Numbered from the stretch's first letter, positions 24,725-62,099 are shown. The stretch: 64,000 nt of DNA from Pseudomonadota bacterium (GCA_021325135.1 JAJPHT010000015.1:181320-245319); one strand, 5' to 3'. The notes: a model not told the origin generated them from the sequence alone. Numbers and translations are program-made.

Positions 24725-26434
24725 GTGCGCCCCCTCCTGCTGGCCCTCGCCGCGGCCCTCCTCACCCCGGCCCTCGCGGGCTGCCTCACGCCGGGGGGGA
24801 CCACCGCGCCGTCCAACGCCTCGGCGCTCCTCTCGCCCATCCAGTTCCCGTCCATCAAGAAGGAGCAGGCGCTCGTCGCCATGGCCGACGGCGTGAAGCT
24901 GGACAACTGGGTCTACCGCCCCGACGCGCCCGGGCAGTTCCCCGTCATCATCGAGAGCCGCCCCTACTTCGGCAACCTCGATCCCCCGGCGCAGGAGGAG
25001 GGGCAGAAGTTCAGCAAGTGGCTCATCCACGAGTTCGTCCCCCGCGGCTACGTCGTCGTCCTGCACAGCGTCCGCGGCACGGGCGACTCGGGCGGCTGCT
25101 ACGGCCAGGGCGGCATCACCGAGCAGAAGGACGAGGCCGCCACCGTGGAGGCGTTCGCCAAGATGCCCTACAGCGACGGCAAGGTGGGCATGATCGGCAA
25201 GTCCTACGGCGGGACCACGCCCTGGGAGGCCGCGGTGCAGGCGCCGCCGCACCTCGTGACCATCGTCCCCGTCTCGGGCATCACCGAGTGGTACCTCTAC
25301 GTCGCGAGCCACGGCGTGTGGTACGACTCGGGCACGCAGTTCAACGAGGAGTACCCCTTCACCATCAGCTTCCACGCCGACCCCACCGGCGCGGACCCCA
25401 ACGACCCCACCTCGTTCCTGCCGCCGCAGTCGCAGCTTTCCCACTACCCCGAGAAGGTCTGCCAGGACTTCGCGCAGGACGAGGCCGCCGGCGCCTCGGG
25501 CGCCAGCACCGGCGACGAGGACGCGTTCTGGCAGGAGCGCGACTACCAGACCGACGCGCAGATCGCCAAGATCGACAAGGCCAACGTCTCGGTCTACGTC
25601 GTCCACGGGCTCCAGGACTGGAACGTCAAGCCCGACAACGTCGTGGACGTCTACAACAAGCTCGCCGTGCCCAAGCACATGCAGCTTGGCCAGTGGGACC
25701 ACCAGTATCCGCTGCGCAACGACTGGGGCACGGAGCTCCTGCGCTGGTTCGACTACTGGCTCAAGGGCGTGAAGAACGGCATCATGGACGAGCCGCCCGT
25801 GAAGCTCATGGACAGCGCGGGCGTCTGGCACGACGAGATGGACTTCCCCGAGTCGCGCGCCGTGAACCTCACGCTGCATCCGGACGACAAGGGCGCCCTC
25901 GCCGAGTCCGCCCCCAAGGGCTCCATGACCTACGTCTCCAGCCCGGCCACCTCCGCCAACGACGCCGCGCCCGGCCAGGACAAGCTCGTCTGGGCCGGCG
26001 CCGCGGAGGCCTCCACGCTGCGCGTCTCTGGCGCGCCGTGGCTCGCCTTCAACGCCACCATCACCGGGCCCAACGCGCAGTTCGTCGCGACGCTCTATGA
26101 TATCAACGGCTCGACGTGGACCGCCATCAACTGGGCCCACCTCGACGCGCGGCACCGCGACGGCGCGGACAAGCCCTCCACCTCGCCCCAGATGGGCGCG
26201 GGCTCGTTCCGCCTGCGCTTCTACCCCATGGACGCGGAGATCGCGCCGGGCCACAAGCTGGGCCTCACCCTCGCGGGCGCGGGCGGCTTCGCGGCGCCGG
26301 GCCAAGGCACCACGGCGCAGGTGGAGGTCGAGACGGGCACCGCCGCGCTGACGCTCCCCACGCTCCCCTCCATCGCGCCCGAGTCTCCGCAGCCCACCAT
26401 GGCGAAGGCCGCGGACCTGGGCTGGACGAGCTGA
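24725..26434 (+). CDS. CocE/NonD family hydrolase lipoprotein (X-Pro dipeptidyl-peptidase-like)
   Basis: LAGC lipobox, MADGVKL, RGTGDSGG, GKSYGG, HGLQDWNV. Confidence 0.88.
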   Translation: MRPLLLALAAALLTPALAGCLTPGGTTAPSNASALLSPIQFPSIKKEQALVAMADGVKLDNWVYRPDAPGQFPVIIESRPYFGNLDPPAQEEGQKFSKWLIHEFVPRGYVVVLHSVRGTGDSGGCYGQGGITEQKDEAATVEAFAKMPYSDGKVGMIGKSYGGTTPWEAAVQAPPHLVTIVPVSGITEWYLYVASHGVWYDSGTQFNEEYPFTISFHADPTGADPNDPTSFLPPQSQLSHYPEKVCQDFAQDEAAGASGASTGDEDAFWQERDYQTDAQIAKIDKANVSVYVVHGLQDWNVKPDNVVDVYNKLAVPKHMQLGQWDHQYPLRNDWGTELLRWFDYWLKGVKNGIMDEPPVKLMDSAGVWHDEMDFPESRAVNLTLHPDDKGALAESAPKGSMTYVSSPATSANDAAPGQDKLVWAGAAEASTLRVSGAPWLAFNATITGPNAQFVATLYDINGSTWTAINWAHLDARHRDGADKPSTSPQMGAGSFRLRFYPMDAEIAPGHKLGLTLAGAGGFAAPGQGTTAQVEVETGTAALTLPTLPSIAPESPQPTMAKAADLGWTS

Positions 26435-26442
26435 GGGCATGC

Positions 26443-27807
26443 ATGCGTCGCGCGCTGGCCCTCCTCCTCGTCGCGCTGACGCTGGGCTGCGCTGCGCCCG
26501 CCGCGCGCCACGAGGCGGAGGCGCCCGTCGTCGCGGCCCGCGCGCCCGATCCGACCCCGGCAAGCCCGACCCCGGAGGCGCCCACGCCTGCGCCCCAGCC
26601 CGCGGCGCCCCCCGCGCCGGAGGCGCCCGCGTTCCGCCGCCACGTCTCGCCCGCCGGCAAGGCGGACGACGCGGGCGAGCCCTCCCTCGGCGTCGACCCG
26701 CGCAACGGCGCCGTGCTCTACCAGGCGAACCTGGAGACGTTCCGCGTGGACCTGGCCAACGACTCGTGGACCTCCGTGGCGCCGCTCACGACGACGCTTC
26801 ACAGCGAGGACCCCATCCTGGCGGTCGATCCGTTCACCGGGCGCGTGTACGTCTCGCAGCTCATGGCGGACTGCAGCATCCTCGCGTGGAGCGACGACGA
26901 CGGCGCGACGTGGACCACGAACCCGCTGGGCTGCGGCGCGGGCACCGGCTTCGACCACCAGACCGTGGGCGGCGGCCCCTTCGCCGCGGGCGTGACGCCC
27001 CTGGGCGGCGCCAAGGACGCGCTCTACTACTGCTCCCACGACACCGTGACGACCTCCTGCGCCGCGTCGCGCGACGGCGGGCTCACCTTCCTGCCCGCGG
27101 TCCCCGTGAACACGGCCGCCACGTGCGACGTCACGGGGCCGGGCCACGTCCGGGTGGGGCGCGACGGCACGGTCTACCTCCCGGAGCGCGCGTGCCACGG
27201 CAGCCAGGACCAGGGCTTCGCCCTCTCCACCGACGGCGGCGTGACGTGGACGCAGCGCTTCCTCGCGGGCGTCGGCAGCCAGGGGGAGAGCGACGCCAGC
27301 CTCGCGCTGGACGCGACGGACAAGATCTACTTCTGCTTCGAGGGCGGAGACGGGCACGCGGGCGTCGCCACCACGGTCGACCGCGGCAAGACGTGGTCCA
27401 AGCCCGTCGACCTGGGCGCGCCCTTCGGGCTCCAGAACACGCAGTTCGAGGTCGCCGTCGCGGGCGCCGCCGGCAAGGCCGCGTGCGCGTTCCTGGGCAC
27501 GCCCACGCCGGGAGACGACCAGGCCGCCGAGTTCAACGGCACGTGGCGCCTCTACGTCGCGTTCACCTGGGACGGAGGCGCCAACTGGACCACCCTCGAC
27601 GCGACGCCCGACGACGTCGTGCAGCAGGGCTGCATCTACCTCTTCGGCAACTTCGGCCCGCCCTGCCGCAACCTCTACGACTTCATGGACGCCGCCGTGC
27701 TCCCCGACGGGCGCGTGCTGGTGGGCTACGCCGACGGCGACGTGGACGGCCGGCAGGCGACGAAGGGCGTCATCGCCGAGCAGGTCGCGGGACCCGGGCT
27801 GCGGTGA
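26443..27807 (+). CDS. BNR/Asp-box (sialidase-like) beta-propeller lipoprotein
   Basis: TLGC lipobox; Asp-boxes SDDDGATW, SRDGGLTF, STDGGVTW, TVDRGKTW, TWDGGANW. Confidence 0.85.
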   Translation: MRRALALLLVALTLGCAAPAARHEAEAPVVAARAPDPTPASPTPEAPTPAPQPAAPPAPEAPAFRRHVSPAGKADDAGEPSLGVDPRNGAVLYQANLETFRVDLANDSWTSVAPLTTTLHSEDPILAVDPFTGRVYVSQLMADCSILAWSDDDGATWTTNPLGCGAGTGFDHQTVGGGPFAAGVTPLGGAKDALYYCSHDTVTTSCAASRDGGLTFLPAVPVNTAATCDVTGPGHVRVGRDGTVYLPERACHGSQDQGFALSTDGGVTWTQRFLAGVGSQGESDASLALDATDKIYFCFEGGDGHAGVATTVDRGKTWSKPVDLGAPFGLQNTQFEVAVAGAAGKAACAFLGTPTPGDDQAAEFNGTWRLYVAFTWDGGANWTTLDATPDDVVQQGCIYLFGNFGPPCRNLYDFMDAAVLPDGRVLVGYADGDVDGRQATKGVIAEQVAGPGLR

Positions 27808-27938
27808 GCGCCTCCCCGTTTCCTTCTCGTCACGTCTTGACGCGACGAGAAGGACGACACGCCCGCCCCCCGTGACCCCCCGCGTCCGCCAGCCCCTTCT
27901 CCAAACCTTAAGACGGGATGGGGCGCCTCCCCGGCCTC

Positions 27939-28871
27939 ATGCACGCCGAGGCGGAGTCCCCCTGCACCGTGGGCAACTTCGGCCCCGGCTTCGACGTGCT
28001 CAGCCTCGCCCTCGCCCGGCGCGGCGACAAGGTGTGGGTCCGCACGGCGGAGGCCGACAAGGTCACGGTGCGCGGGCCCGGCCACGAGCGCGTCCCCACC
28101 GAGTGGGCGCGCAACTCCGCCTGCGCGAGCCTCGACCACCTGCGCAAGCTCACCGGCCGCGCCGAGCCGCTGGAGGTCGTCATCGAGAAGGGCATGCCCC
28201 CCGGCAGCGGCCTCGGCAGCAGCGCGTCCTCCAACGCCAGCGCGGTGCGCGCGTTCGCCCGCCTATGGGGTGTCGCGCTCTCGCCCTTGCAGGCGCTGGA
28301 GGCCGCCGCCGCGGGCGAGGCCGTCGCCACGGGGAGCGCGCACACGGACGACGTGGCCGCCGCGCTCTTCGGCGGGCTCACCGTGGTGGGCGGGAAGGGC
28401 CCGGACGCCGTGATCCGGCTGCGCCCTCCCCCTCTGCATCTCGTCGTCGCGCGCCCCGAGGTCGACCTCCCCACGCGGGAGATGCGCCGCCTCATCCCGG
28501 ACGCGCTGCCCAAGGCCGCCGTCGTGGGCAACCTGAGCAACGTCGCGCGCATCGTGCACGCCTGCCACCGCGGCGACGCGGCCATGCTCTGCCGCGCGCT
28601 GGAGGACGGCATCTCGCGCCCCTACCGCGCGCCCCGCGTCCCCCTCTTCGAGGAGGCGCGCCAGGCGGCCCTCGCGCAGGGCGCCGAGGCCTTTTTGCTA
28701 TCTGGGTCGGGCCCCGCCATGATCGCGGCGATGCCCGCCGAGAAGGACCCCCGCGCCGTGGAGAGCGCCATGCGCGACGTCTTCGTCAAGGCCGCGCTGG
28801 ACGCCGAGGTGTTCACGACGCAGCCGCTCCCGGAGGTGAAGGACCCTGCGATTCCGCTGCATCCGCTGTGA
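27939..28871 (+). CDS. thrB: Homoserine kinase
   Basis: NFGPGFDVL, PGSGLGSSAS GHMP motif, SGSGP; CCTTAAG TATA-like upstream. Confidence 0.92.
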   Translation: MHAEAESPCTVGNFGPGFDVLSLALARRGDKVWVRTAEADKVTVRGPGHERVPTEWARNSACASLDHLRKLTGRAEPLEVVIEKGMPPGSGLGSSASSNASAVRAFARLWGVALSPLQALEAAAAGEAVATGSAHTDDVAAALFGGLTVVGGKGPDAVIRLRPPPLHLVVARPEVDLPTREMRRLIPDALPKAAVVGNLSNVARIVHACHRGDAAMLCRALEDGISRPYRAPRVPLFEEARQAALAQGAEAFLLSGSGPAMIAAMPAEKDPRAVESAMRDVFVKAALDAEVFTTQPLPEVKDPAIPLHPL

Positions 28872-30003
28872 CCGCGACTATCCCCTCGCGCAGGTGCGCT
28901 ACCGCTGCGAGTGCGGCGGCCTCCTGGAGGTCGAGGCGGACTGGCGCTGGCGCCCCACGGAGGCGCGCGGCCTGTGGCGATATCGTTCCCTCCTCCCCAC
29001 GCTGGACGAGGCGCCGCCCGTCACGCTCCAGGAGGGGGGAACGCCCCTCGTGAGGTGCGAGCGCCTCGCGGCGTGGGCCGGCGTGCGCGAGCTGAGCGTC
29101 AAGGTCGAGGGCGCGAACCCCACGGGCTCCTTCAAGGACCGCGGCATGACGGTGGGCGTCACCCTCGCGCGCAGCCTCGGCATGAAGGCCCTCGCGTGCG
29201 CGAGCACGGGCAACACCAGCGCGTCCCTCGCAGCGTATGGCGCGCGGGCCGGGCTCCCCGTGAGCGTCCTCGTCCCCGCGGGCAAGATCGCGGCCGGCAA
29301 GATGGCGCAGGCCCTCGCCTTCGGCGCCAAGGTGATCGAGGTGGAGGGCGGCTTCGACGAGGCCATGTCCCTGGTGGAGCAGCTTTCCGCCGACGGCCAC
29401 GTCTACCTCCTGAACTCCCTCAACCCGCTGCGCCTTGAAGGGCAGAAGACGCTCCTCTTCGAGGTGCTGGAGGCGGCCTCGCCCGACCGCGTCGTCTTCC
29501 CCGTGGGCAACGGCGGCAACGTCAGCGCCGCGCACAAGGCCATCCGCGAGGCCAACGCCACGGGCCTCTCCCGCGCGACGCCCATGCTCACCGGCGTCCA
29601 GGCCGAGGGCGCGGCGCCCCTCGCCTCCGGAAGCTATCACCCTGTGGACAAGGCCGAGACGCTGGCCACCGCCATCCGCATCGGGCGCCCGGTCAACGCC
29701 GACAAGGCCCTGCGCGCCGTGAAGGAGACGGGCGGCGCGTTCGCCAAGGTCAGCGACGCGGAGATCTTCGACGCGCAGCGCCGCCTCGCGCGGGAGGAGG
29801 GGCTCTTCGTCGAGCCCGCCAGCGCGGCGCCCCTTGCGGGCCTTCGCAGGCTCGTGGAGTCCGGCGTCGTGGACCGCTCCGAGAGCGTGGTGCTCGTCGC
29901 GACGGGGAACGGCATGAAGGACCCCGACGTGGTGTCGCGCTACGCGTCCCCTCCGTTGCGGACGAAGGCCGATCTTCCCTCTCTTCTGAAGGTGCTATCG
30001 TGA
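28846..30003 (+). CDS. thrC: Threonine synthase (CTG start inferred)
   Basis: NPTGSFKDRG, ASTGNTSAS, PVGNGGN, EPASAA; N-terminal CIRC..CECG ribbon needs a start at CTG 28846. Confidence 0.93.
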   Translation: MRFRCIRCDRDYPLAQVRYRCECGGLLEVEADWRWRPTEARGLWRYRSLLPTLDEAPPVTLQEGGTPLVRCERLAAWAGVRELSVKVEGANPTGSFKDRGMTVGVTLARSLGMKALACASTGNTSASLAAYGARAGLPVSVLVPAGKIAAGKMAQALAFGAKVIEVEGGFDEAMSLVEQLSADGHVYLLNSLNPLRLEGQKTLLFEVLEAASPDRVVFPVGNGGNVSAAHKAIREANATGLSRATPMLTGVQAEGAAPLASGSYHPVDKAETLATAIRIGRPVNADKALRAVKETGGAFAKVSDAEIFDAQRRLAREEGLFVEPASAAPLAGLRRLVESGVVDRSESVVLVATGNGMKDPDVVSRYASPPLRTKADLPSLLKVLS

Positions 30004-55245: not shown

Positions 55246-55704
55246 TCAGCGCCTGGCGGCCTCGCGCGCCAGCGTGCCCGCGATCTTCTGGATGCGCCGC
55301 TTCAGCGAGGGGTCGACGGGGAACTGCCGGTGGTGCGGGCAGTCGTCGTCGCGCACGAGGCGCTGGTCCTCCGTGAGCACGAAGGGGTAGATGCGGCACC
55401 CGATGGGGCGGTCCGCGTAGACGCTGCACTGGTTGTCCTTGAGGAAGAAGCACGGGCGGCCGGGCTTGCCCGCGGCCACGTCCTTCGGCGAGCGGCCCGC
55501 GTCGGTCATGCCCTCGGGGCGCGGCACGGTGAGGAGGTAGAGCGCGCGGTCCTCCCTCTTCACGAAGGAGAAGTCCGCCCGCTTGTGGCCCAGGGCCTCC
55601 AGCCGCTGCGCGTCCTCCTCGGTCAAGGGCATCTCGGTGTCGTAGCAGCACGACGCGCACCCGTTGGCGACGCACGGATTCCCCTGGAGCATGGGCAGGC
55701 TCAT
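55246..55704 (-). CDS. YkgJ/CxxCxxCC cysteine cluster protein
   Basis: CVANGCASCC, CFFL..QCSVYADRPIGCRIYPF, CP. Confidence 0.85.
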   Translation of the reverse strand: MSLPMLQGNPCVANGCASCCYDTEMPLTEEDAQRLEALGHKRADFSFVKREDRALYLLTVPRPEGMTDAGRSPKDVAAGKPGRPCFFLKDNQCSVYADRPIGCRIYPFVLTEDQRLVRDDDCPHHRQFPVDPSLKRRIQKIAGTLAREAARR

Positions 55705-56192
55705 CGCGCGTCCCTCGCCAGCGTGATCCCGCTCTGCCCCTGGTAGTGGCCGCTGCGCTCGTGGTAGAGCGCGACGGGGGGCGTCTCCAGCCGCTCCAGG
55801 ACGAGCTGGCAGAAGCGGTCGCCCACGGGCACCTCCAGGGGCGCGCGGCCCGCGTTGAGGCCGCCCACCGTGAGCGTGCCCTCGAAGCCCGCCTCCACCT
55901 TGCCGAAGGAGCCGAACACGCCGCGGCGCGCGTAGGAGGAGCGCAGCCACAGCGAGCCGCACACGTCGGGCGGCATCCGCACGCGCTCCACCGTGGAGAC
56001 GAGGAAGCGCGCGCCGCCGGGCACGACGACCTTCCCCTCGCGCACGACCTCGCCCCCCTCGTCCGGGAGCATGACCTCGGCCACGCGCAGGTCGTAGCCG
56101 TTGGGGGTCAGGCCGCGGGGCTCGAAGGGCGCGATCCCCAGGCTGCCCGTCGCCATGCGCTGCGCGATGTCCCGGTCCGAGAGGACGCCCAT
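55701..56192 (-). CDS. dcd: dCTP deaminase
   Basis: LSDRDI, PNGYDLR, RSSYARRG, EAGFEG, YQGQSG. Confidence 0.9.
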   Translation of the reverse strand: MGVLSDRDIAQRMATGSLGIAPFEPRGLTPNGYDLRVAEVMLPDEGGEVVREGKVVVPGGARFLVSTVERVRMPPDVCGSLWLRSSYARRGVFGSFGKVEAGFEGTLTVGGLNAGRAPLEVPVGDRFCQLVLERLETPPVALYHERSGHYQGQSGITLARDAR

Positions 56193-56284
56193 GCGGCGCC
56201 CCACCGCCGCGCCGCGAGATAAACGCTGCCCGCCCCGCGCGGGGGAAGCATTCATCCGGGATCGGCGGATTGGACCGAACCACG

Positions 56285-56359
56285 GGGCCTGTAGCCTAGC
56301 CCGGATAAGGCGGCAGCCTTCGGAGCTGTTTGTCTTGGGTTCGAATCCCAACAGGCCCG
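56285..56359 (+). tRNA. tRNA-Arg (TCG)
   Basis: GGGCCTG/CAGGCCC acceptor stem, GCAGC-CTTCGGA-GCTGT anticodon arm, GGTTCGAATCC T-arm; no encoded CCA. Confidence 0.95.
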
Positions 56360-56667
56360 CTCACTTCGTTCGCGGCCCCGTTGCCAGCGCTGCGCGCGGG
56401 TCGCTGGACTGCGGTCCGGCGGCCACCCTCGGCGCCGATGCGCCCGCGGGTCCCAAAAAAGCCCGCTCAATTCGCGCGCGGCCGCGCCTCCGTCGGCGGT
56501 CCTCCCTGAAGCGCCCCCAGTCCCAGACGCTCCCGCCCGGTGCCCGCGCCGTGCACAGAGGCACTGACACGGCGCGGGCAAGCGGACGGGAGCGTCAGGC
56601 TCCGCGGCCCTTGGAACCGGGGAAGGCTGTTACCCAAGTGGTAGGGGGCAGGAGGGGGCGTCATCCT

Positions 56668-56687
56668 TTGCAGGATCGATCCTGCAA
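56668..56687. promoter_or_regulatory. Perfect 20-bp palindrome, candidate operator of the ArsR-FHA gene
   Basis: TTGCAGGATCGATCCTGCAA about 50 nt upstream of ATG 56740. Confidence 0.5.
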
Positions 56688-56739: not shown

Positions 56740-57429
56740 ATGCCCCTGGGGGACGTGGACGTGGAGCGGCTCAGCGCGCACCTGCGGGCCCTGGCCCATC
56801 CGGCGCGGCTGGAGCTCCTGCGCCTCCTGAGGCGCCCCGCCGCGCCGGCGGAGATGGAGGTGCGCCCGCGGCGGCGCGACGCGGACCTGCACCCGGAGCG
56901 CGCCATGAGCCGGCAGTCCATCATGGACCACCTGGCGACGCTGGAGGAGGTCGGCGTGGTCAACCGCATCGAGGCGGACGGCGCCACGCGCTACGTGACC
57001 AGCGCGCAGCGGCTCTTCGCCCTGGTGGAGGAGCTTCGCAGCCTCACGGCGCTGGAGCCCTCGATGCGCGTCGACGTGGAGGCGACGCTCGCCAACGGGG
57101 CCGCGGACGCGCCCGCCTGGACGCCGGGCCCGCGCCTCGTGCTCCTGGGCGGGCCGTGGGAGGGGCGCGCGTTCGCGCTGGCGGGGGCGGGCCCCTGGAC
57201 GCTGGGGCGCTCGCGGGAGCGGGACGTGGCGCTCACCTACGACCCCTTCGCCAGCGCGGAGCAGGCGCGCATCGAGCGGCAGGGGGCGACGCTCACCGTG
57301 AGGCCCGAGGAGGGCGCGCGCAACCCGACGCGCCTCAACTTCGCGACGCTGGCGACGGGGGCTCCGCGGCCGCTGCGCCCGGGGGACGTCATCGGGATCG
57401 GGCGGTCGCACCTGGTGTTCCAGCCCTGA
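56740..57429 (+). CDS. ArsR-type wHTH regulator fused to a C-terminal FHA domain
   Basis: LRALAHPARLELLRLL..SRQSIMDHLATLEEVGVV; WTLGRS..DPFAS..NPTRLN..LRPGDVIGIGRS. Confidence 0.88.
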   Translation: MPLGDVDVERLSAHLRALAHPARLELLRLLRRPAAPAEMEVRPRRRDADLHPERAMSRQSIMDHLATLEEVGVVNRIEADGATRYVTSAQRLFALVEELRSLTALEPSMRVDVEATLANGAADAPAWTPGPRLVLLGGPWEGRAFALAGAGPWTLGRSRERDVALTYDPFASAEQARIERQGATLTVRPEEGARNPTRLNFATLATGAPRPLRPGDVIGIGRSHLVFQP

Positions 57430-59473
57430 GGGCGGCGCGGAACGCGGCCGGGTCCGCGGGGCGCTCCTCGGGCCGCTTGGAGAGCGCGGCGCGCAGCGGC
57501 GCCTCCAGCCACGACGGGATCGCCGGGTGCGGCAGGCGCGGCGCGTCCAGGAGGATGCGCTCGCGGGCCGAGAAGGCGTCCGCGCCCGCGAGGTCGATGG
57601 GGTGCTCGCCGGTGAGCAGCCGGTAGAGGACCGCGCCGGCGGCGTAGACGTCGGAGGCGGCCGCGGGGCGCGCGCCGCGCACGACCTCGGGCGCCATCGT
57701 TGAGAGCGTCCCCTCCACGGCCGCGCCGGTGAGCGTCGTCCCCGGGTCGGCGGCGCGCGCGGAGCCGAAGTCCGCAAGGAGGCCGCGCCCGTCCGCGTCC
57801 AGGAGGAGGTTCTCGCACTTCACGTCACCGTGCACGAGGCCCGCCGCGTGCAGCGCCGCGAGCCCTTCGAGGAGGTCGTCCAGGAGGGGCAGCGCGCGCT
57901 CGGGGGGCAGCGGGCCCTCCCGCGCGAGGAGGTCCTTCGCGCTGCCGCCGGGGGCGCGCTCCATGACGAGGAAGGCGTCCCCCTCGCGGCGGTCGACGTC
58001 CAGGAGCCGCACGATGCGGGGGCTCTGGACGGCCTGGAGCGCGCGCGCCTCGGCGACGAGCCGGGAGCCCTCCCGCGGGGTGTGATATCGTTTCACGACG
58101 ACCTCGCGCCCCGTCTCGGCGTCGGAGGCGAGGTAGACGGTGGCGGTGGCGCCGCGGCCGATCTCGGCGCCCAGCACGTAGCGGCCGATGCGCTCGCGCG
58201 ACTCCAGGCCGCGCAGGAGCATGGCGTGCTCGCGCTCGGTGACGCCCAGGTCGCGGCGCAGGTCGGCAAGGAGGCCGTCGCTTCCGGGGATCTCGCGCCC
58301 GTTGCCGCCCCGCGTCGCGGCGAGGGCGGCGGCGTAGCGGCGGGCGCGCTCGGCGACGGCGCGCGGGTCGTCGGCCGCGAGGAGCGCGCGCTCGGCCAGG
58401 GCGTCGACGGGGCGCCAGAGGGCGAGCCCCGCGGCGAGGGCCACCAGCGCGCCCGCGCCCAGGGCGAGCCCCCCTTCGCCCAGGGCGCCCATGACGAGGA
58501 GCCCGAAGAGGGCGCCCGCGGCCGCGGCGAAGAGGGCGCGCAGCGCGGCCCGCGCCCGGCGGCGCTCGCGCCCGCCCGCTCCGGCGAGGCCGTAGCGCGC
58601 GACGGCGAGGACGACGACGAGGGCGAAGAGGAGGCGCAGGAGGAGGTCCGTGCCGTCGTACCGGGAGAAGGAGGAGCCCAGGTCGGGGCGCGCCTTGAGG
58701 AGGCCGTCCAGGGCGCCCAGGCTCGCGAGGACCGCGGCGCCCGTGGCGACGATGCGCCCCGCGCTGGCGCCCAGGGGCCTCACGAGGCGCGGGGCGTACG
58801 CGACGACGGCGAGGCCGCCCGCGATGGTGGCCGCCGCGCGCAGGACGAAGGGCGCGTAGGCGGCCTCCGCGGGCGCGAACGCGGTGAAGGAGACGAAGAA
58901 CGCGCCGCTCTGGACGAGGTAGGGCGAGAAGGCGAGCCCCAGGGCGCCCGCGATGCGGCGCTCCGGCTCGGGGCGCAACTCGTCCGCCGCGACGCGCGCC
59001 GCGGCCACGACGAACGCGACGAGGGCCGCCGTGGAGGGGACGGTGGCGACGTAGGTGAGGGGCCCGCTGACCATGGCCCACTCGGAGGAGACGCGCGCGA
59101 CGCCGGCCACGAAGAGCGCGGGCTGCCACGCGAACGCGGCGCCCAGGAGGACGGCCGCCGCCGCGGTGGCCGCGAGGAGCGCGCGCCTGGCGGGGAGCGC
59201 GTCGGGCCAGAGGAGGGCGGCCACGTAGAGCGTGAGGAAGGGGATCGCCAGCGACCAGGCGGTGGAGAGCCGGGCGAGGACCAGCGCGGTCGCGGCGGAG
59301 GGGGCGCCCGGCAGCAGCGTGACGGACGCCATGTAGCCGGCGCGCAGGAGCATGAGCGCGGCGAGGACCTTGTGCGACGCGGCCTCGGGGCGGACGACGA
59401 GGACGAGGACGCCCGCCGCGCCCACCGCGGCGGCCAGGGCAAGCCCCAGGGTGCCAAGCGCCAGCGCGGTCAC
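57389..59473 (-). CDS. Multi-TM receptor-like Ser/Thr (Hanks-type) protein kinase
   Basis: About 9 TM helices then IGRGATATV, VVVK, HGDVKCEN, DFG, MAPE, SDVY. Confidence 0.9.
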   Translation of the reverse strand: MTALALGTLGLALAAAVGAAGVLVLVVRPEAASHKVLAALMLLRAGYMASVTLLPGAPSAATALVLARLSTAWSLAIPFLTLYVAALLWPDALPARRALLAATAAAAVLLGAAFAWQPALFVAGVARVSSEWAMVSGPLTYVATVPSTAALVAFVVAAARVAADELRPEPERRIAGALGLAFSPYLVQSGAFFVSFTAFAPAEAAYAPFVLRAAATIAGGLAVVAYAPRLVRPLGASAGRIVATGAAVLASLGALDGLLKARPDLGSSFSRYDGTDLLLRLLFALVVVLAVARYGLAGAGGRERRRARAALRALFAAAAGALFGLLVMGALGEGGLALGAGALVALAAGLALWRPVDALAERALLAADDPRAVAERARRYAAALAATRGGNGREIPGSDGLLADLRRDLGVTEREHAMLLRGLESRERIGRYVLGAEIGRGATATVYLASDAETGREVVVKRYHTPREGSRLVAEARALQAVQSPRIVRLLDVDRREGDAFLVMERAPGGSAKDLLAREGPLPPERALPLLDDLLEGLAALHAAGLVHGDVKCENLLLDADGRGLLADFGSARAADPGTTLTGAAVEGTLSTMAPEVVRGARPAAASDVYAAGAVLYRLLTGEHPIDLAGADAFSARERILLDAPRLPHPAIPSWLEAPLRAALSKRPEERPADPAAFRAALRAGTPGATARSR

Positions 59474-60060
59474 CCGCCCGGCGGCGGAGGCGGGGGCGAA
59501 AGGGGGCAGCACTCGGGCGGCGGGCAGCCCACGCAGTCGAGCTGGACCTTAGTGCCCGTCGTCCCGGTGAAGGGGGGATCGTCCAGGTGCAGGCCGATGG
59601 GGGCGTGCGGCTCGACGTAGTAGCGGCCCGTGGCGACGTCGTAGGACGCGTAGAGGGGGCACGCCGCGAGGAGGCACGACGTGGGCGTCGCGATGCAGGG
59701 GGGCACGATCCCCACGAGGGACGTGTCGGGCTGGGGGACCTCGCCCAGGATCGTGTCGAGGCCGGGGAGGACGAGGCGCTCGACGGCGTCGGCCGGGTCC
59801 GCGGGGCGGTCCGCCAGCGAGCAGTCGTCCGACGCGGCGCTCCCGGAGTGGGGCACCTCGGGCGTGGCGAGGGTGATCGACACGATGTAAGGGTCGTCCG
59901 GGCCCTCCAGGCCGTCGGGGCCCACGGCGACGGGCCCGGCGCCGATGGACGGCGACAGGCCGTCCGTGGTCCAGGCGAGGTATTCGGTCCGGGGCGGGCT
60001 CCAGGCGGCGGCCGGGCCGGCGACGGACACGAGCAGGACGATCAGCAGGGCGACGCGCAT
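59470..60060 (-). CDS. Secreted Pro/Cys-rich protein coupled to the kinase gene
   Basis: Signal ending AAA; 8 Cys; stop overlaps the kinase GTG (GTGA). Confidence 0.65.
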   Translation of the reverse strand: MRVALLIVLLVSVAGPAAAWSPPRTEYLAWTTDGLSPSIGAGPVAVGPDGLEGPDDPYIVSITLATPEVPHSGSAASDDCSLADRPADPADAVERLVLPGLDTILGEVPQPDTSLVGIVPPCIATPTSCLLAACPLYASYDVATGRYYVEPHAPIGLHLDDPPFTGTTGTKVQLDCVGCPPPECCPLSPPPPPPGG

Positions 60061-60345: not shown

Positions 60346-60849
60346 TCACGGATCGACGCCCAGGTCCACGTCCGTCCCTTCCGAGACGGGGACGCGCACG
60401 CTGCTGGTCGCCTCCTCGATCGCGCCCTTCCAGGCCTCGGCCGGCGCGCCCGCCTGGTGCGCCTCGCGCATCGCGCGCAACGCGGCGCCCAGGATGCGGT
60501 CCCCCTGCGCCTGGCTCTCCGCGGCGTCGACGCAGGGCACGCCGTCGAACACGACGCAGCCCAGCCGCTCGCGCAGCGTCTCGTCCAGAAGGTAGAACCC
60601 GTGGCGCCGCGCGCCGGGCTCCCAGGTGACGGAGACGCACGCGGAGCCGCAGGCGGCCTCGATCCACACGCGGACCTCCAGGTCGGCGCCCGCGGTCGCA
60701 CGCTGGAGGTCGAGGAACGCGGCGCTGCGCAGGAGGACGTCGGCCTTCTCGGCGACGGCGCGGGCGTAGTCGTCCTCGGCCGGCGCGCCCACCGCCGCGA
60801 TCCAGTCGACGCGGAAGGGGCTCGCGAAGCGCTCGTCGAAGGCCTTCAT
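60346..60849 (-). CDS. Hypothetical protein
   Basis: ORF with typical GC3 codon usage, no recognisable motif. Confidence 0.5.
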   Translation of the reverse strand: MKAFDERFASPFRVDWIAAVGAPAEDDYARAVAEKADVLLRSAAFLDLQRATAGADLEVRVWIEAACGSACVSVTWEPGARRHGFYLLDETLRERLGCVVFDGVPCVDAAESQAQGDRILGAALRAMREAHQAGAPAEAWKGAIEEATSSVRVPVSEGTDVDLGVDP

Positions 60850-60941
60850 GCCCAAGCCTTGGCGGCGCTGGAGAACATGCGTTGGGCGAAGGACGCAGCG
60901 CCCTTCGCGCGAGCTTTATCCCCCAGGAGCGGCGGGCGGCC

Positions 60942-62099
60942 TCACGGGCTGCCGGTGAAGTCCGCCAGCACCGGATGCGCCGAGTCGTAGGCGACGACCT
61001 GCAGCTTGTACTGCACCTGCGCGTCGGAGCAGGCCGTGCACTGCCCCATGCCGGTGGGGTCGCTGGTGGACACCTGGAGGTCGAAGCGCCACTGGCTCGT
61101 CTTCGCGTAGGGGCTGTCGGTCTGCTGCATGTTCACGGGCCACGAGAACTGGAAGACGCCCTTGCCCATGTCCGCGTGGGTGACGTTCGCGCGGCGGAAG
61201 TTGCTGGAGTCCGCCGACTTGTAGAGGAAGGAGATGTTGCGCACCTGGCCGATCTGCGCCGTGGCGTCGGTGATGGTGACGTTGGCCGTCATCCAGACCG
61301 TCTCCATGGGGACGACCTTCTGCGACGCGACGCCCTCGGGGGGCTGGTCGCCGTTGTTCTGGATGCGGTCCACGATGGCCGTCTCCGCGCTCTGGTGCGA
61401 GCTGGTCGCGGGCCCGTCGAAGAGGCCCAGCGTGTGGCCCGCGCCGAAGAGCATGCCGTGGCCCGGCCAGAGCGAGAGGTCGCGCATGCGCACGATGTCG
61501 GCGCGCAGGTGGACGTTCCCCTCGATGACGCCGCCCTGCGCGGGCAGCAGCTGGAAGGCCCAGCGGCTCGTCTTCTCGTGGGGCATGTCGCACATCTCGG
61601 GCGTGACGTCGATCTTGAGGGGCGCGCCGCTCGTGATGGGCTGCGGCTTCGACCAGTCCGTGTCCGCCGCGCTGCGGTAGCGCAGCGTGACGCTGGTCAC
61701 GGTGGGGTCGCTCCACGTCGCGGTGATCTCCATGCGGCCCGTGCCCTCGAAGACCGTGGCGCCGTCGGTGGGGCGCGCCATCGCGCCGCCCACGCCGGGC
61801 GTCTGGTAGCGAAGCACGTCCGCGAAGGTGTATTGCAGCGCGTCCTGGGGCTGCACGTCGAGGTCCTGGTCCAGGATCGTGACGCGCTCCTTGCCCTCCC
61901 AGTAGTCGTGCATGTGCGCCATCTGGCCCATGTCGCCCGTGGCGTTGGTGGAGTTGCCCGTGTCGACGATCACGGGGGGAGCCTTGGCCGCCGTCGTGTT
62001 GACGGCAGGCGCGGGCTTGTCTCCGCCCGAGCCGCCCAGGCAGCCCGCGAAGCCGCCGGTGACGAAGAGGGCCGCGACGAGGACAAGGAGCAGGCGCAT
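60942..62099 (-). CDS. Hypothetical lipoprotein with two similar beta domains
   Basis: FAGC lipobox; HMHDYW; repeated YRSA/YKSA..D.P..KTS.W.F; TTTAAATA upstream. Confidence 0.75.
   Translation of the reverse strand: MRLLLVLVAALFVTGGFAGCLGGSGGDKPAPAVNTTAAKAPPVIVDTGNSTNATGDMGQMAHMHDYWEGKERVTILDQDLDVQPQDALQYTFADVLRYQTPGVGGAMARPTDGATVFEGTGRMEITATWSDPTVTSVTLRYRSAADTDWSKPQPITSGAPLKIDVTPEMCDMPHEKTSRWAFQLLPAQGGVIEGNVHLRADIVRMRDLSLWPGHGMLFGAGHTLGLFDGPATSSHQSAETAIVDRIQNNGDQPPEGVASQKVVPMETVWMTANVTITDATAQIGQVRNISFLYKSADSSNFRRANVTHADMGKGVFQFSWPVNMQQTDSPYAKTSQWRFDLQVSTSDPTGMGQCTACSDAQVQYKLQVVAYDSAHPVLADFTGSP

Follow-up and report, generated by a model that had tools for sequence, protein, structure and literature searches.

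The window, a stretch of 64,000 nt, carries three adjoining genes between positions 56740 and 60060, and their third-position GC values (0.98, 0.97 and 0.96) show that all three code well. A gene for a regulator of 229 aa, with a winged helix-turn-helix (wHTH) and an FHA domain, lies on the plus strand (56740..57429) and converges with the gene for a polytopic Ser/Thr kinase of 707 aa on the minus strand (57389..59512). The 3′ ends of both genes overlap by exactly 41 nt (57389..57429). The third gene (59470..60060, minus strand) has a GGAGG box before its ATG and encodes a secreted Cys/Pro-rich protein of 196 aa with a signal-like N-terminal segment, 8 Cys and 33 Pro (17%). Its stop codon overlaps a possible kinase start in a GTGA junction (59470..59473, minus strand). 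We place the kinase start at the in-frame GTG 39 nt upstream (59512), with the GTG at 59473 as the alternative, and either start leaves the two genes overlapping. The initial annotation had described the 41-bp convergent overlap, the GTGA coupling and the Cys/Pro-rich secreted product, and all three features are real, with a second possible start to be kept in mind for the coupling. It had also taken the DNA to be archaeal. The genome contains two TBP repeats, close relatives are MAGs entered in the database as Thermoplasmata archaeon, and on this evidence the host is an uncultured Thermoplasmata archaeon. Orthologous loci do not share their flanking genes. A match to Rfam mir-H2 at 56520-56602 scored far under the gathering threshold and was dismissed.

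The AlphaFold2 model of the regulator (mean pLDDT 87) consists of a winged-helix N-domain and an FHA domain. The ArsR-like wHTH domain (aa 8-103; 56761..57048, plus strand) is built from helices 8-17, 21-29 and 58-71, a wing (74-87) and a further helix (89-103), with pLDDT values above 90 except for an insert at 35-55. Profile scores for the window regulator stayed below the cut-offs (HTH_20, PF12840, 20.5 bits versus 27; NF033788, 26.2 versus 55). Many of its relatives score for PF12840, and the ArsR-like recognition helix (xSRQ..xxHL) and the wing are kept across the family. The Cys residues by which ArsR/SmtB metalloregulators sense metals are absent and the wHTH part has no Cys at all; the resemblance to ArsR concerns fold and DNA binding, not metal sensing. 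In a search with an alignment of 8 regulator sequences, relatives over the full length came from three archaeal MAG records only, and all bacterial matches were confined to the HTH.

The FHA domain (aa 130-229; 57127..57426, plus strand) was recognised by Pfam FHA (PF00498) with 30.6 bits versus a cut-off of 20.7. Its model (pLDDT > 90) superposes on GarA and OdhI with TM scores of 0.89-0.94 and an rmsd of 1.2 Å, and Foldseek returned the FHA domains of GarA, OdhI and DgcB (E ~2e-8), with EmbR also among the structural matches. The phospho-threonine (pThr)-binding residues G156, R157, S172 and N195 are present, as had been noted together with the caveat that Q replaces the usual FHA His. Among 239 relatives, G156 and R157 are found in 239, S172 in 233 and N195 in 231, and the His position is occupied by H (104), N (103), S (20) or Q (11). 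Since this position varies while the GR, S and N residues are almost invariant, the caveat is minor. Between the two domains lies a linker that is predicted to be disordered (pLDDT < 50) and contains Thr116 (codon 57085..57087, plus strand). This residue is T in 225 of the 239 family members, while the neighbouring columns are variable. Such conservation suggests a GarA-like pThr/FHA switch with Thr116 as candidate phospho-acceptor.

The Hanks-type domain of the kinase (aa 445-685; 57458..58180, minus strand) is intact, as had been claimed. Pfam Pkinase (PF00069) matched it with 137.8 bits versus a cut-off of 31.7 (E = 5.8e-40), and all catalytic motifs can be read in the sequence: the Gly-loop (GRGATA), the Lys in VVVK, the alpha-C Glu in EARAL, HGDVKCEN, DFG, the TTLT of the activation loop, and MAPE. 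The Arg of the HRD motif is replaced by Gly, as in 8 of 34 relatives, and in such a non-RD kinase activation-loop phosphorylation is perhaps dispensable. An NCBIfam match to the MADS6 defence kinase was far under its cut-off and was dismissed. The domain is preceded by a cytoplasmic helical linker (58181..58408, minus strand), in which the reported motif LADLRRDLGVTEREH is present (58226-58270); its pattern, L-R-x-[DE]-L-G-[ILV]-[STD]-x-x-E, recurs in 6 of 9 other paralogous kinases and in the orthologues. The N-terminal part is a membrane sensor (58409..59473, minus strand) with short loops, the longest of about 22 aa, and no ectodomain as judged by hydropathy. The initial annotation was right about the multi-TM build, but hydropathy gives 10-11 hydrophobic segments rather than about nine helices. 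Its suggestion that this part resembles HisKA_7TM sensors is no more than plausible for this kinase: neither HisKA_7TM (PF16927) nor any other Pfam family matches the sensor of the window kinase at E ≤ 10, but HisKA_7TM clusters head the ESM Atlas matches (score 0.91). Two paralogous kinases are recognised by PF16927 (C23, 28.2-29.2 bits with a cut-off of 28.6; C3, 18.4 bits), and in hhalign the orthogroup of the window kinase aligned over 288 columns, at 63% probability, with the PF16927-matching paralogue group. Homology of the sensor module to HisKA_7TM is probable.

The genome of the window (G000) has 8 wHTH-FHA genes, and 7 of these lie directly next to a gene for a multi-TM kinase built in the same way; three kinases have no regulator nearby. 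Such regulators occur in 1-16 copies in each of 20 relatives of the same class, and 20 genomes from other classes yielded none. In the survey of 20 related genomes, with 50 regulators sampled across 15 genomes, a kinase domain lies within 2.8 kb of 34 regulators (18 pairs convergent, 10 tandem, 6 divergent), and about 30% of the regulators have no kinase within 5 kb. At two other paralogous pairs the 3′ ends overlap in a similar way, by 13 and 44 nt. For 18 of the 34 pairs, the closest relative of the regulator and the closest relative of the kinase belong to the same other pair, while within-genome shuffling gave 4.2 on average and at most 14, and none of 3000 shuffles reached 18. The correlation between the regulator and kinase distance matrices (rho 0.33) was above all 2000 full permutations, but exceeded only about 92% of the within-genome permutations (378 of 5000 not beaten), and the nearest-neighbour test is the stronger of the two. 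Inheritance of both families as pairs is strongly supported by these comparisons. That kinase and regulator are neighbours by chance, or for purely local reasons without functional coupling, is hardly conceivable in view of the frequency of the pairs, their occurrence in three orientations and the concordance that no shuffle reached. The synteny survey has thus upheld the proposed pathway from kinase to FHA regulator, the two genes being co-conserved across related archaea. It did not uphold the inclusion of all three genes, since the family of the secreted protein is tiny and stands beside a minority of the kinases only.

A perfect 20-bp palindrome, TTGCAGGATCGATCCTGCAA, is located 72 nt upstream of the regulator ATG (56668..56687) and represents a candidate operator. 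Allowing up to 3 mismatches, 2 sites were found in the window genome and 5 in a congener (G002), while a reversed-pattern control gave none; no site was present in three relatives lacking a close orthologue (G001, G004, G014). Presence of the palindrome tracks presence of the regulator orthogroup. In the window genome and the congener, seven of eight sites lie 35-130 nt upstream of genes for signal-peptide proteins, most of them Cys-rich. Signal peptides were called by a simple hydropathy rule, not by a trained predictor. The shorter form GCAGG-N6-CCTGC occurs 19 times in the window genome, and 10 of these sites precede SP-like genes, versus 7.6% of random positions; 3 of the 19 are at −70 of regulator genes. 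Copies of the palindrome in metagenomes served as a negative control: they fell on 38 unrelated low-GC contigs, and none of the 38 had a kinase, FHA or signal-peptide neighbour. Two paralogous regulators (on C12 and C21) have GCAGGG-N4-CCCTGC at the same −70 position. Of the 8 regulator genes in this genome, no more than 3 have a recognisable palindrome at −70. By our own estimates, perfect palindromes with 7-nt arms upstream of regulators are not above a rough expectation, and those with 10-nt arms number 3 versus about 0.2 expected. Only the 10-nt-arm palindromes and the common motif stand out.

The palindromes could be read by another factor. The wHTH-FHA protein might then be no transcription factor but a scaffold or a modulator of the kinase that uses its winged helix for protein contacts. 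The sub-cut-off scores of the window wHTH are in line with such a role, as is the lack of the palindrome upstream of both orthologous regulator genes of the congener; it is also absent from the G014 locus. However, conservation of the recognition helix and wing, the scores of many relatives for PF12840, the related palindromes at −70 of three paralogous regulator genes and the co-occurrence of palindrome and regulator orthogroup make a scaffold very unlikely.

The initial annotation considered the secreted protein as ligand of the kinase and the locus as self-contained. Our data do not favour this view. Among 5.8 billion clusters the family counts 5 members, which share 5 invariant Cys; there is also one distant relative (E = 0.004, G006). 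Neither Pfam nor NCBIfam gave a match for the protein, and its AlphaFold2 model reaches a pLDDT of 35. The palindromes rather point to outputs: as copies of the palindrome sit upstream of signal-peptide genes, the secreted Cys-rich proteins, several of them encoded elsewhere in the genome, look like regulated products.

An autoinducing loop, in which the secreted protein or a fragment of it is both output and extracellular ligand of the co-transcribed kinase, is nevertheless possible, if rather doubtful. It would follow the logic of the peptide-pheromone operons Agr and Com, except that a Hanks kinase would stand in for the histidine kinase and an FHA regulator for the response regulator. As in those operons, the secreted product is encoded directly upstream of the putative receptor kinase: the gene overlaps the kinase start in the window, abuts the kinase in both copies of the congener, and its distant relative has the same position in G006. 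About 9 of 37 kinases have a co-directional gene immediately upstream for a secreted protein of 100-240 aa with at least 4 Cys. At one locus of the congener (G002:C97) the candidate operator precedes the operon, about 90 nt upstream of the secreted-gene orthologue, so the regulator may control a signal-plus-receptor operon there. In the window, on the other hand, the secreted gene has no palindrome in front of it, such a gene is missing beside most kinases of the family, and the small size of the secreted family and the short loops of the sensor argue against a ligand role. At other paralogous loci, Cys-rich genes are divergent from the regulator or located elsewhere behind a palindrome, a layout expected of targets. 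Unlike the short peptides of Agr and Com, the product of the window family is a protein of about 175 aa, and no processing or export gene accompanies it.

The candidate regulon consists of mutually unrelated, fast-evolving secreted Cys-rich proteins for which no Pfam family was found. Together with the 1-16 paralogous channels per genome and the membrane-embedded type of sensor, this is what would be expected if the locus were the regulatory arm of inter-microbial conflict or surface remodelling, with the Cys-rich proteins acting as halocin-like antimicrobials or adhesins and the kinase sensing envelope damage or competitors instead of its own product. The proteins show no similarity to known bacteriocin, toxin or immunity families, however, and the neighbourhood holds no conserved transporter or immunity gene, so that we regard this function as quite unlikely.

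We found no description of a kinase/wHTH-FHA pair in the literature searched. The arrangement is similar to PknH/EmbR of Mycobacterium tuberculosis, where the gene for a membrane Hanks kinase adjoins that of a transcription factor with a C-terminal FHA domain, and the EmbR FHA domain mediates kinase-dependent phosphorylation. EmbR differs by its OmpR/SARP-type DNA-binding domain and BTAD, for neither of which the window regulator, with its ArsR-like wHTH, has a Pfam or NCBIfam match. PknH is a single-pass protein with an N-terminal kinase and a folded ectodomain, whereas the window kinase domain is C-terminal to a sensor with 10-11 TM segments, and the window pair is archaeal and expanded within genomes. 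The closest FHA structures are those of GarA and OdhI, which act with PknB/PknG in Actinobacteria, and of DgcB from Bdellovibrio. Each of these proteins has an on/off switch in which the FHA domain binds a Thr of a flexible stretch beyond its own borders once this Thr has been phosphorylated, a design that Thr116 would fit. None of them binds DNA: the targets of GarA and OdhI are metabolic enzymes, and DgcB is itself a diguanylate cyclase. In Sulfolobales, ArnA/ArnB with ArnC/ArnD, and ST0829/ST1565, are archaeal examples in which Hanks kinases act on transcription by way of an FHA protein (PMC5007285, PMC10470591). ArnA, however, carries a zinc finger instead of a wHTH, and it works jointly with the vWA protein ArnB. 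The Arn kinases are not polytopic sensors, and their genes do not form conserved pairs of neighbours. Two-component systems with HisKA_7TM share with the window pair a membrane sensor kinase, a cognate DNA-binding partner and many co-inherited paralogous pairs. Neither window protein matches a HisKA/HATPase_c core or a REC receiver, and Ser/Thr phosphorylation would be read by the FHA domain instead. The locus would act in the manner of a two-component system, but it does not belong to the His-Asp class. The module does not replace missing two-component systems, as the same genome contains 36 REC and about 27 HATPase_c matches. A PP2C_2 phosphatase was not found in this genome.

We consider it likely that, at its core, the locus encodes a pair of proteins that signal through phospho-threonine, kinase and wHTH-FHA regulator, with a secreted-protein regulon. 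The pair probably forms a so far undescribed route by which genes for secreted Cys-rich proteins are controlled. Phosphorylation steps, DNA binding, direction of regulation and input signal are all what we infer, and the route would run as follows. The polytopic sensor, probably HisKA_7TM-like, would control the cytoplasmic Hanks kinase through the helical linker, and a signal would lead to autophosphorylation on Thr in the TTLT activation loop and/or the linker. The FHA domain of the regulator would dock on the pThr of the kinase, which would then phosphorylate Thr116. The FHA domain would bind pThr116 as in GarA/OdhI or DgcB, either within the same chain or between the chains of the dimer, and may thereby change how the winged-helix dimer is seated on the 20-bp palindrome. 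The presence of the palindrome before the regulator's own gene in the window genome, and before secreted-protein genes in this genome and the congener, suggests autoregulation and control of a small secreted-protein regulon as the output. The secreted protein co-transcribed with the kinase would be one of the regulated products and might in addition serve as signal or co-sensor. It seems unlikely that a class of Thermoplasmatota operates many insulated paralogous phospho-Thr channels, each with a HisKA_7TM-type sensor-Hanks kinase and a pThr116-FHA latch and each tuned to its own secreted Cys-rich signal and output, amounting to archaeal quorum-type autoinduction without His-Asp chemistry.

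To our knowledge, the coupling of membrane sensing to transcription is poorly known in archaea, where most response regulators lack DNA-binding outputs, and ArnA/B is the only archaeal FHA pathway studied so far and is not a sensor-to-promoter route. At the level of sequence, what is new here is the near-invariant Thr116 of the linker and the 20-bp palindrome with copies before signal-peptide genes. The family offers a compact, testable example of a polytopic sensor kinase with an FHA-bearing DNA-binding partner and a predicted phospho-acceptor, together with a 20-bp sequence as candidate operator and a small set of secreted-protein genes as candidate regulon, in which a sensor module typical of histidine kinases would have been re-used on a Hanks kinase. 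Since the pairs are inherited like cognate two-component pairs, partner specificity and insulation may become addressable in a Ser/Thr system.

The region between 56740 and 60060 of the window (C15:181320-245319 of the source assembly, which comprises 3.77 Mb with a GC content of about 72%) contains three ORFs with a third-position GC of 0.96–0.98. They encode a wHTH-FHA regulator of 229 aa (56740-57429, plus strand), a Ser/Thr kinase of 707 aa (57389-59512, minus strand) and a secreted protein of 196 aa (59470-60060, minus strand). The genes for regulator and kinase are convergent and overlap by 41 nt at their 3′ ends, and at a GTGA junction the stop codon of the secreted-protein gene overlaps a GTG from which the kinase may start; an in-frame GTG located 39 nt further upstream is a second candidate start. 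The three-gene arrangement described in the initial annotation is thus correct. The kinase is polytopic as proposed, but hydropathy gives 10–11 membrane segments instead of about nine helices. The GC content of the kinase/regulator block (57000-59500) is 0.77–0.79 versus about 0.70–0.73 in the flanks, which is partly explained by the Ala/Gly/Leu-rich membrane domain.

The regulator gene follows a tRNA-Arg(TCG) gene (56285-56360, plus strand) at a distance of 380 nt. A dCTP deaminase gene (55701-56351, minus strand) has a long open frame that extends into this tRNA, so that its translation probably begins at an internal Met. A 169-aa ORF (60346-60855, minus strand, GC3 0.97) lies between the secreted-protein gene and a gene for a 385-aa lipoprotein-like protein (60942-62099, minus strand). 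The ORF matched no Pfam family, has no paralogue in the source genome and is not conserved beside the orthologues in the congener G002. The lipoprotein-like protein, whose signal ends in AGC, is also without a Pfam family; at least 10 paralogues of it (22–39% identity) occur in the source genome. Two TBP repeats were found in this genome and close homologues are deposited under Thermoplasmata archaeon MAGs, identifying the source as an archaeon.

The FHA domain of the regulator matches Pfam above the cut-off, and the matches to HTH_20 and ArsR-type models were below cut-offs only. An AlphaFold2 model (22 relatives; mean pLDDT 87) predicts a winged helix, a disordered linker (pLDDT below 50 for residues 109–121) and an FHA sandwich, which superposes on the FHA domains of GarA, OdhI and DgcB with TM scores of 0.89–0.94 and an rmsd of 1.2–1.4 Å. 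All 239 aligned relatives have G156 and R157, 233 have S172 and 231 have N195. The initial annotation had noted a Gln in place of the usual His (residue 175, 57262-57264). This observation is real, but Gln is ordinary for the family, given the spread over His (104), Asn (103), Ser (20) and Gln (11) among the relatives. The near-even split between His and Asn may mark two functional subclasses. Of the 239 relatives 225 retain Thr116, with a hydrophobic residue after it, while the surrounding linker is variable and predicted to be disordered. In GarA/OdhI and DgcB, which are the best structural relatives of this FHA domain, a Thr located in a flexible tail becomes phosphorylated, whereupon the protein's own or the neighbouring FHA domain captures it; Thr116 in the flexible linker parallels this tail Thr. 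From the conservation of Thr116 and this analogy we propose that the kinase would phosphorylate Thr116, and that contact between the FHA domain and pThr116 would re-set the winged-helix dimer.

The catalytic domain of the kinase (aa 445–685), located in its cytoplasmic part (aa ~370–707), matches Pfam Pkinase with an E-value of 5.8e-40, and inspection of the sequence revealed the Gly-loop, the VVVK lysine, the alpha-C Glu, HGDVKCEN, DFG and APE. The kinase is non-RD, as are 8 of 34 relatives. A Thr in the activation loop is common across the kinase family and could serve as FHA docking site. For the N-terminal region (aa 1–431) no Pfam match was obtained even at E ≤ 10. The proposed resemblance to HisKA_7TM sensors nevertheless finds some support: an ESM Atlas feature search with the sensor ranked two HisKA_7TM clusters first (score 0.91, 188–190 features in common), and PF16927 matches the membrane regions of two paralogous kinases of the source genome, on contig C23 at the cut-off and on contig C3 at 18 bits. 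Profile-profile comparison linked the orthogroup of the window kinase to the PF16927-matching paralogue group with 63% probability over 288 colinear columns, although composition bias of membrane segments could inflate both this figure and the paralogue scores. A HisKA_7TM nature of the sensor is therefore plausible but not established for the window copy. With its short loops of no more than 22 aa, the sensor probably detects a signal in or at the membrane. The kinase linker carries the motif L-R-x-[DE]-L-G-[ILV]-[S/T/D]-x-x-E (58226-58270), which is conserved in most partnered kinases (contigs C48, C23, C3, C36, C17 and C15:46k of the source genome). In some of them Asp replaces the S/T residue, as would be compatible with a phospho-site or a mimic of one.

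FHA and Pkinase searches, followed by reading of the frames, revealed eight wHTH-FHA genes in the source genome, along with about 10 kinases whose N-terminal region is polytopic; seven of the eight regulators directly adjoin such a kinase. Each of the 20 genomes sampled from the same class carries the regulator family (1–16 copies), which was not found in 20 genomes searched from other classes of the phylum; two further families of the phylum carry it at E ≤ 1e-40. At E ≤ 1e-30 an exhaustive profile search retrieved 372 clusters (50% identity), almost all of them 220–300 aa long and matching end to end. We surveyed the neighbourhoods of 50 regulators, comprising 40 loci in relatives together with those of the source genome. 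A kinase catalytic domain was found within 2.8 kb of 34 regulators, in convergent (18), tandem (10) or divergent (6) orientation. This adjacency outlasts rearrangement, which favours function over a frozen operon. In 18 of the 34 pairs, the nearest relatives of regulator and kinase fall in one other pair, often from a different genus or family; shuffling of partners within genomes gave 4.2 on average and 14 at most, and none of 3000 shuffles reached 18. The pairing is an old one, and the regulator and kinase families are inherited as pairs. Adjacency within and beyond the source genome, conservation in three orientations and nearest-neighbour concordance support the view that the kinase signals to the FHA regulator.

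The secreted protein starts with a signal-like segment and contains 8 Cys and 17% Pro. Its family comprises five sequences with five invariant Cys and motifs including YASYDVxTGRYY and DCxGCPPP. The gene lies directly upstream of the kinase gene in the window and in both G002 copies, with differing genes in the remaining flanks, and a distant relative holds the same position in the related genome G006. About 9 of 37 kinases have a co-directional gene for a secreted protein with at least 4 Cys just upstream. At other paralogous loci of the source genome the Cys-rich genes are instead oriented divergently to the regulator or sit upstream of it. The kinases thus often, but not universally, have a secreted Cys-rich protein as companion.

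A perfect 20-bp palindrome, TTGCAGGATCGATCCTGCAA (56668-56687), is located 72 nt upstream of the regulator ATG. The source genome contains 19 GCAGG-N6-CCTGC sites, three of them at exactly −70 of three regulator genes (window, C12 and C21), with about 0.01 expected in 200-nt upstream stretches. Ten of the 19 sites are 15–170 nt upstream of genes with a signal-peptide-like start by our own crude rule, mostly Cys-rich, compared to 7.6% of random positions. With up to three mismatches, the 20-mer occurs twice in the source genome and five times in G002, which holds two orthologues of the regulator/kinase pair. It is absent from the related genomes G001, G004 and G014, and a reversed-pattern control had no occurrence in the genomes scanned. 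Reading of the flanks placed seven of eight sites 35–130 nt upstream of signal-peptide genes (same crude rule), the eighth being the regulator's own promoter in the window. These genes, none with a Pfam family, include several Cys-rich ones (13 Cys in 256 aa, 8 in 117 aa, 12 in 441 aa). A control set of 38 exact motif copies from unrelated metagenome contigs lacked such neighbours. In G002 the regulator genes lack the palindrome in their upstream regions; one of the seven sites precedes the orthologue of the secreted-protein gene (contig C97), which there heads a secreted-gene/kinase operon. The simplest reading is that the regulator would bind the palindrome, a candidate operator, and control its own gene and a small set of secreted proteins.

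The initial annotation had cast the secreted protein as ligand of a self-contained pathway. This is not supported as stated: the companion is not universal, and the candidate operator points to the secreted protein as output. The ligand idea survives solely as an autoinduction variant, which we consider rather unlikely.

Throughout the source genome, GCAGG-N6-CCTGC palindromes are found 20–130 nt upstream of scattered genes for small secreted, mostly Cys-rich (5–18 Cys) proteins, for example at C42:58161, C39:6163, C33:34007, C23:62743, C27:107384 and C49:23397. These resemble a dispersed regulon under control of the paralogous wHTH-FHA regulators. Orthologous regulators from two genera (loci L034 in G018 and L036 in G017) share the palindrome TTCAACC-N-GTTGGTTGA, located about 75 nt ahead of the start. 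A common ACAAAAGGCTTCT box upstream of the palindrome may be a promoter element.

In its logic and in the pair-wise inheritance of its partners the locus is akin to two-component systems, without any of their domains. Ordinary two-component genes are also present in the source genome, which rules out that the kinase/FHA module replaces them; it rather adds to them. At a paralogous locus on contig C12 the gene for a 911-aa histidine kinase (24761-27496, plus strand) converges on a Ser/Thr kinase gene (27477-29294, minus strand) with a 20-nt overlap, so that His and Ser/Thr signalling chemistries are encoded tail to tail. In a 1769-aa protein (C35:53654-58963, minus strand) a degenerate Pkinase-like N-terminus is followed by a long helical/NTPase-like middle region and a HisKA-HATPase histidine-kinase core at the C-terminus, and a REC match lies just upstream of its gene.

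The locus follows the scheme of PknH/EmbR, a Ser/Thr kinase paired with an FHA transcription factor. It differs in its ArsR-like instead of SARP DNA-binding domain, in a polytopic N-terminal sensor instead of a single-pass ectodomain kinase, and in its archaeal host, in which the family is expanded to many copies. ArnA/ArnB, the FHA pathway that has been studied in archaea, is built differently (PMC5007285, PMC10470591), and no description of an archaeal wHTH-FHA/polytopic-kinase pair was found in the full-text literature searched, the coverage of which was incomplete. To the theme of kinase and FHA transcription factor the locus makes testable additions: a conserved linker Thr, a candidate operator and a candidate secreted-protein regulon.
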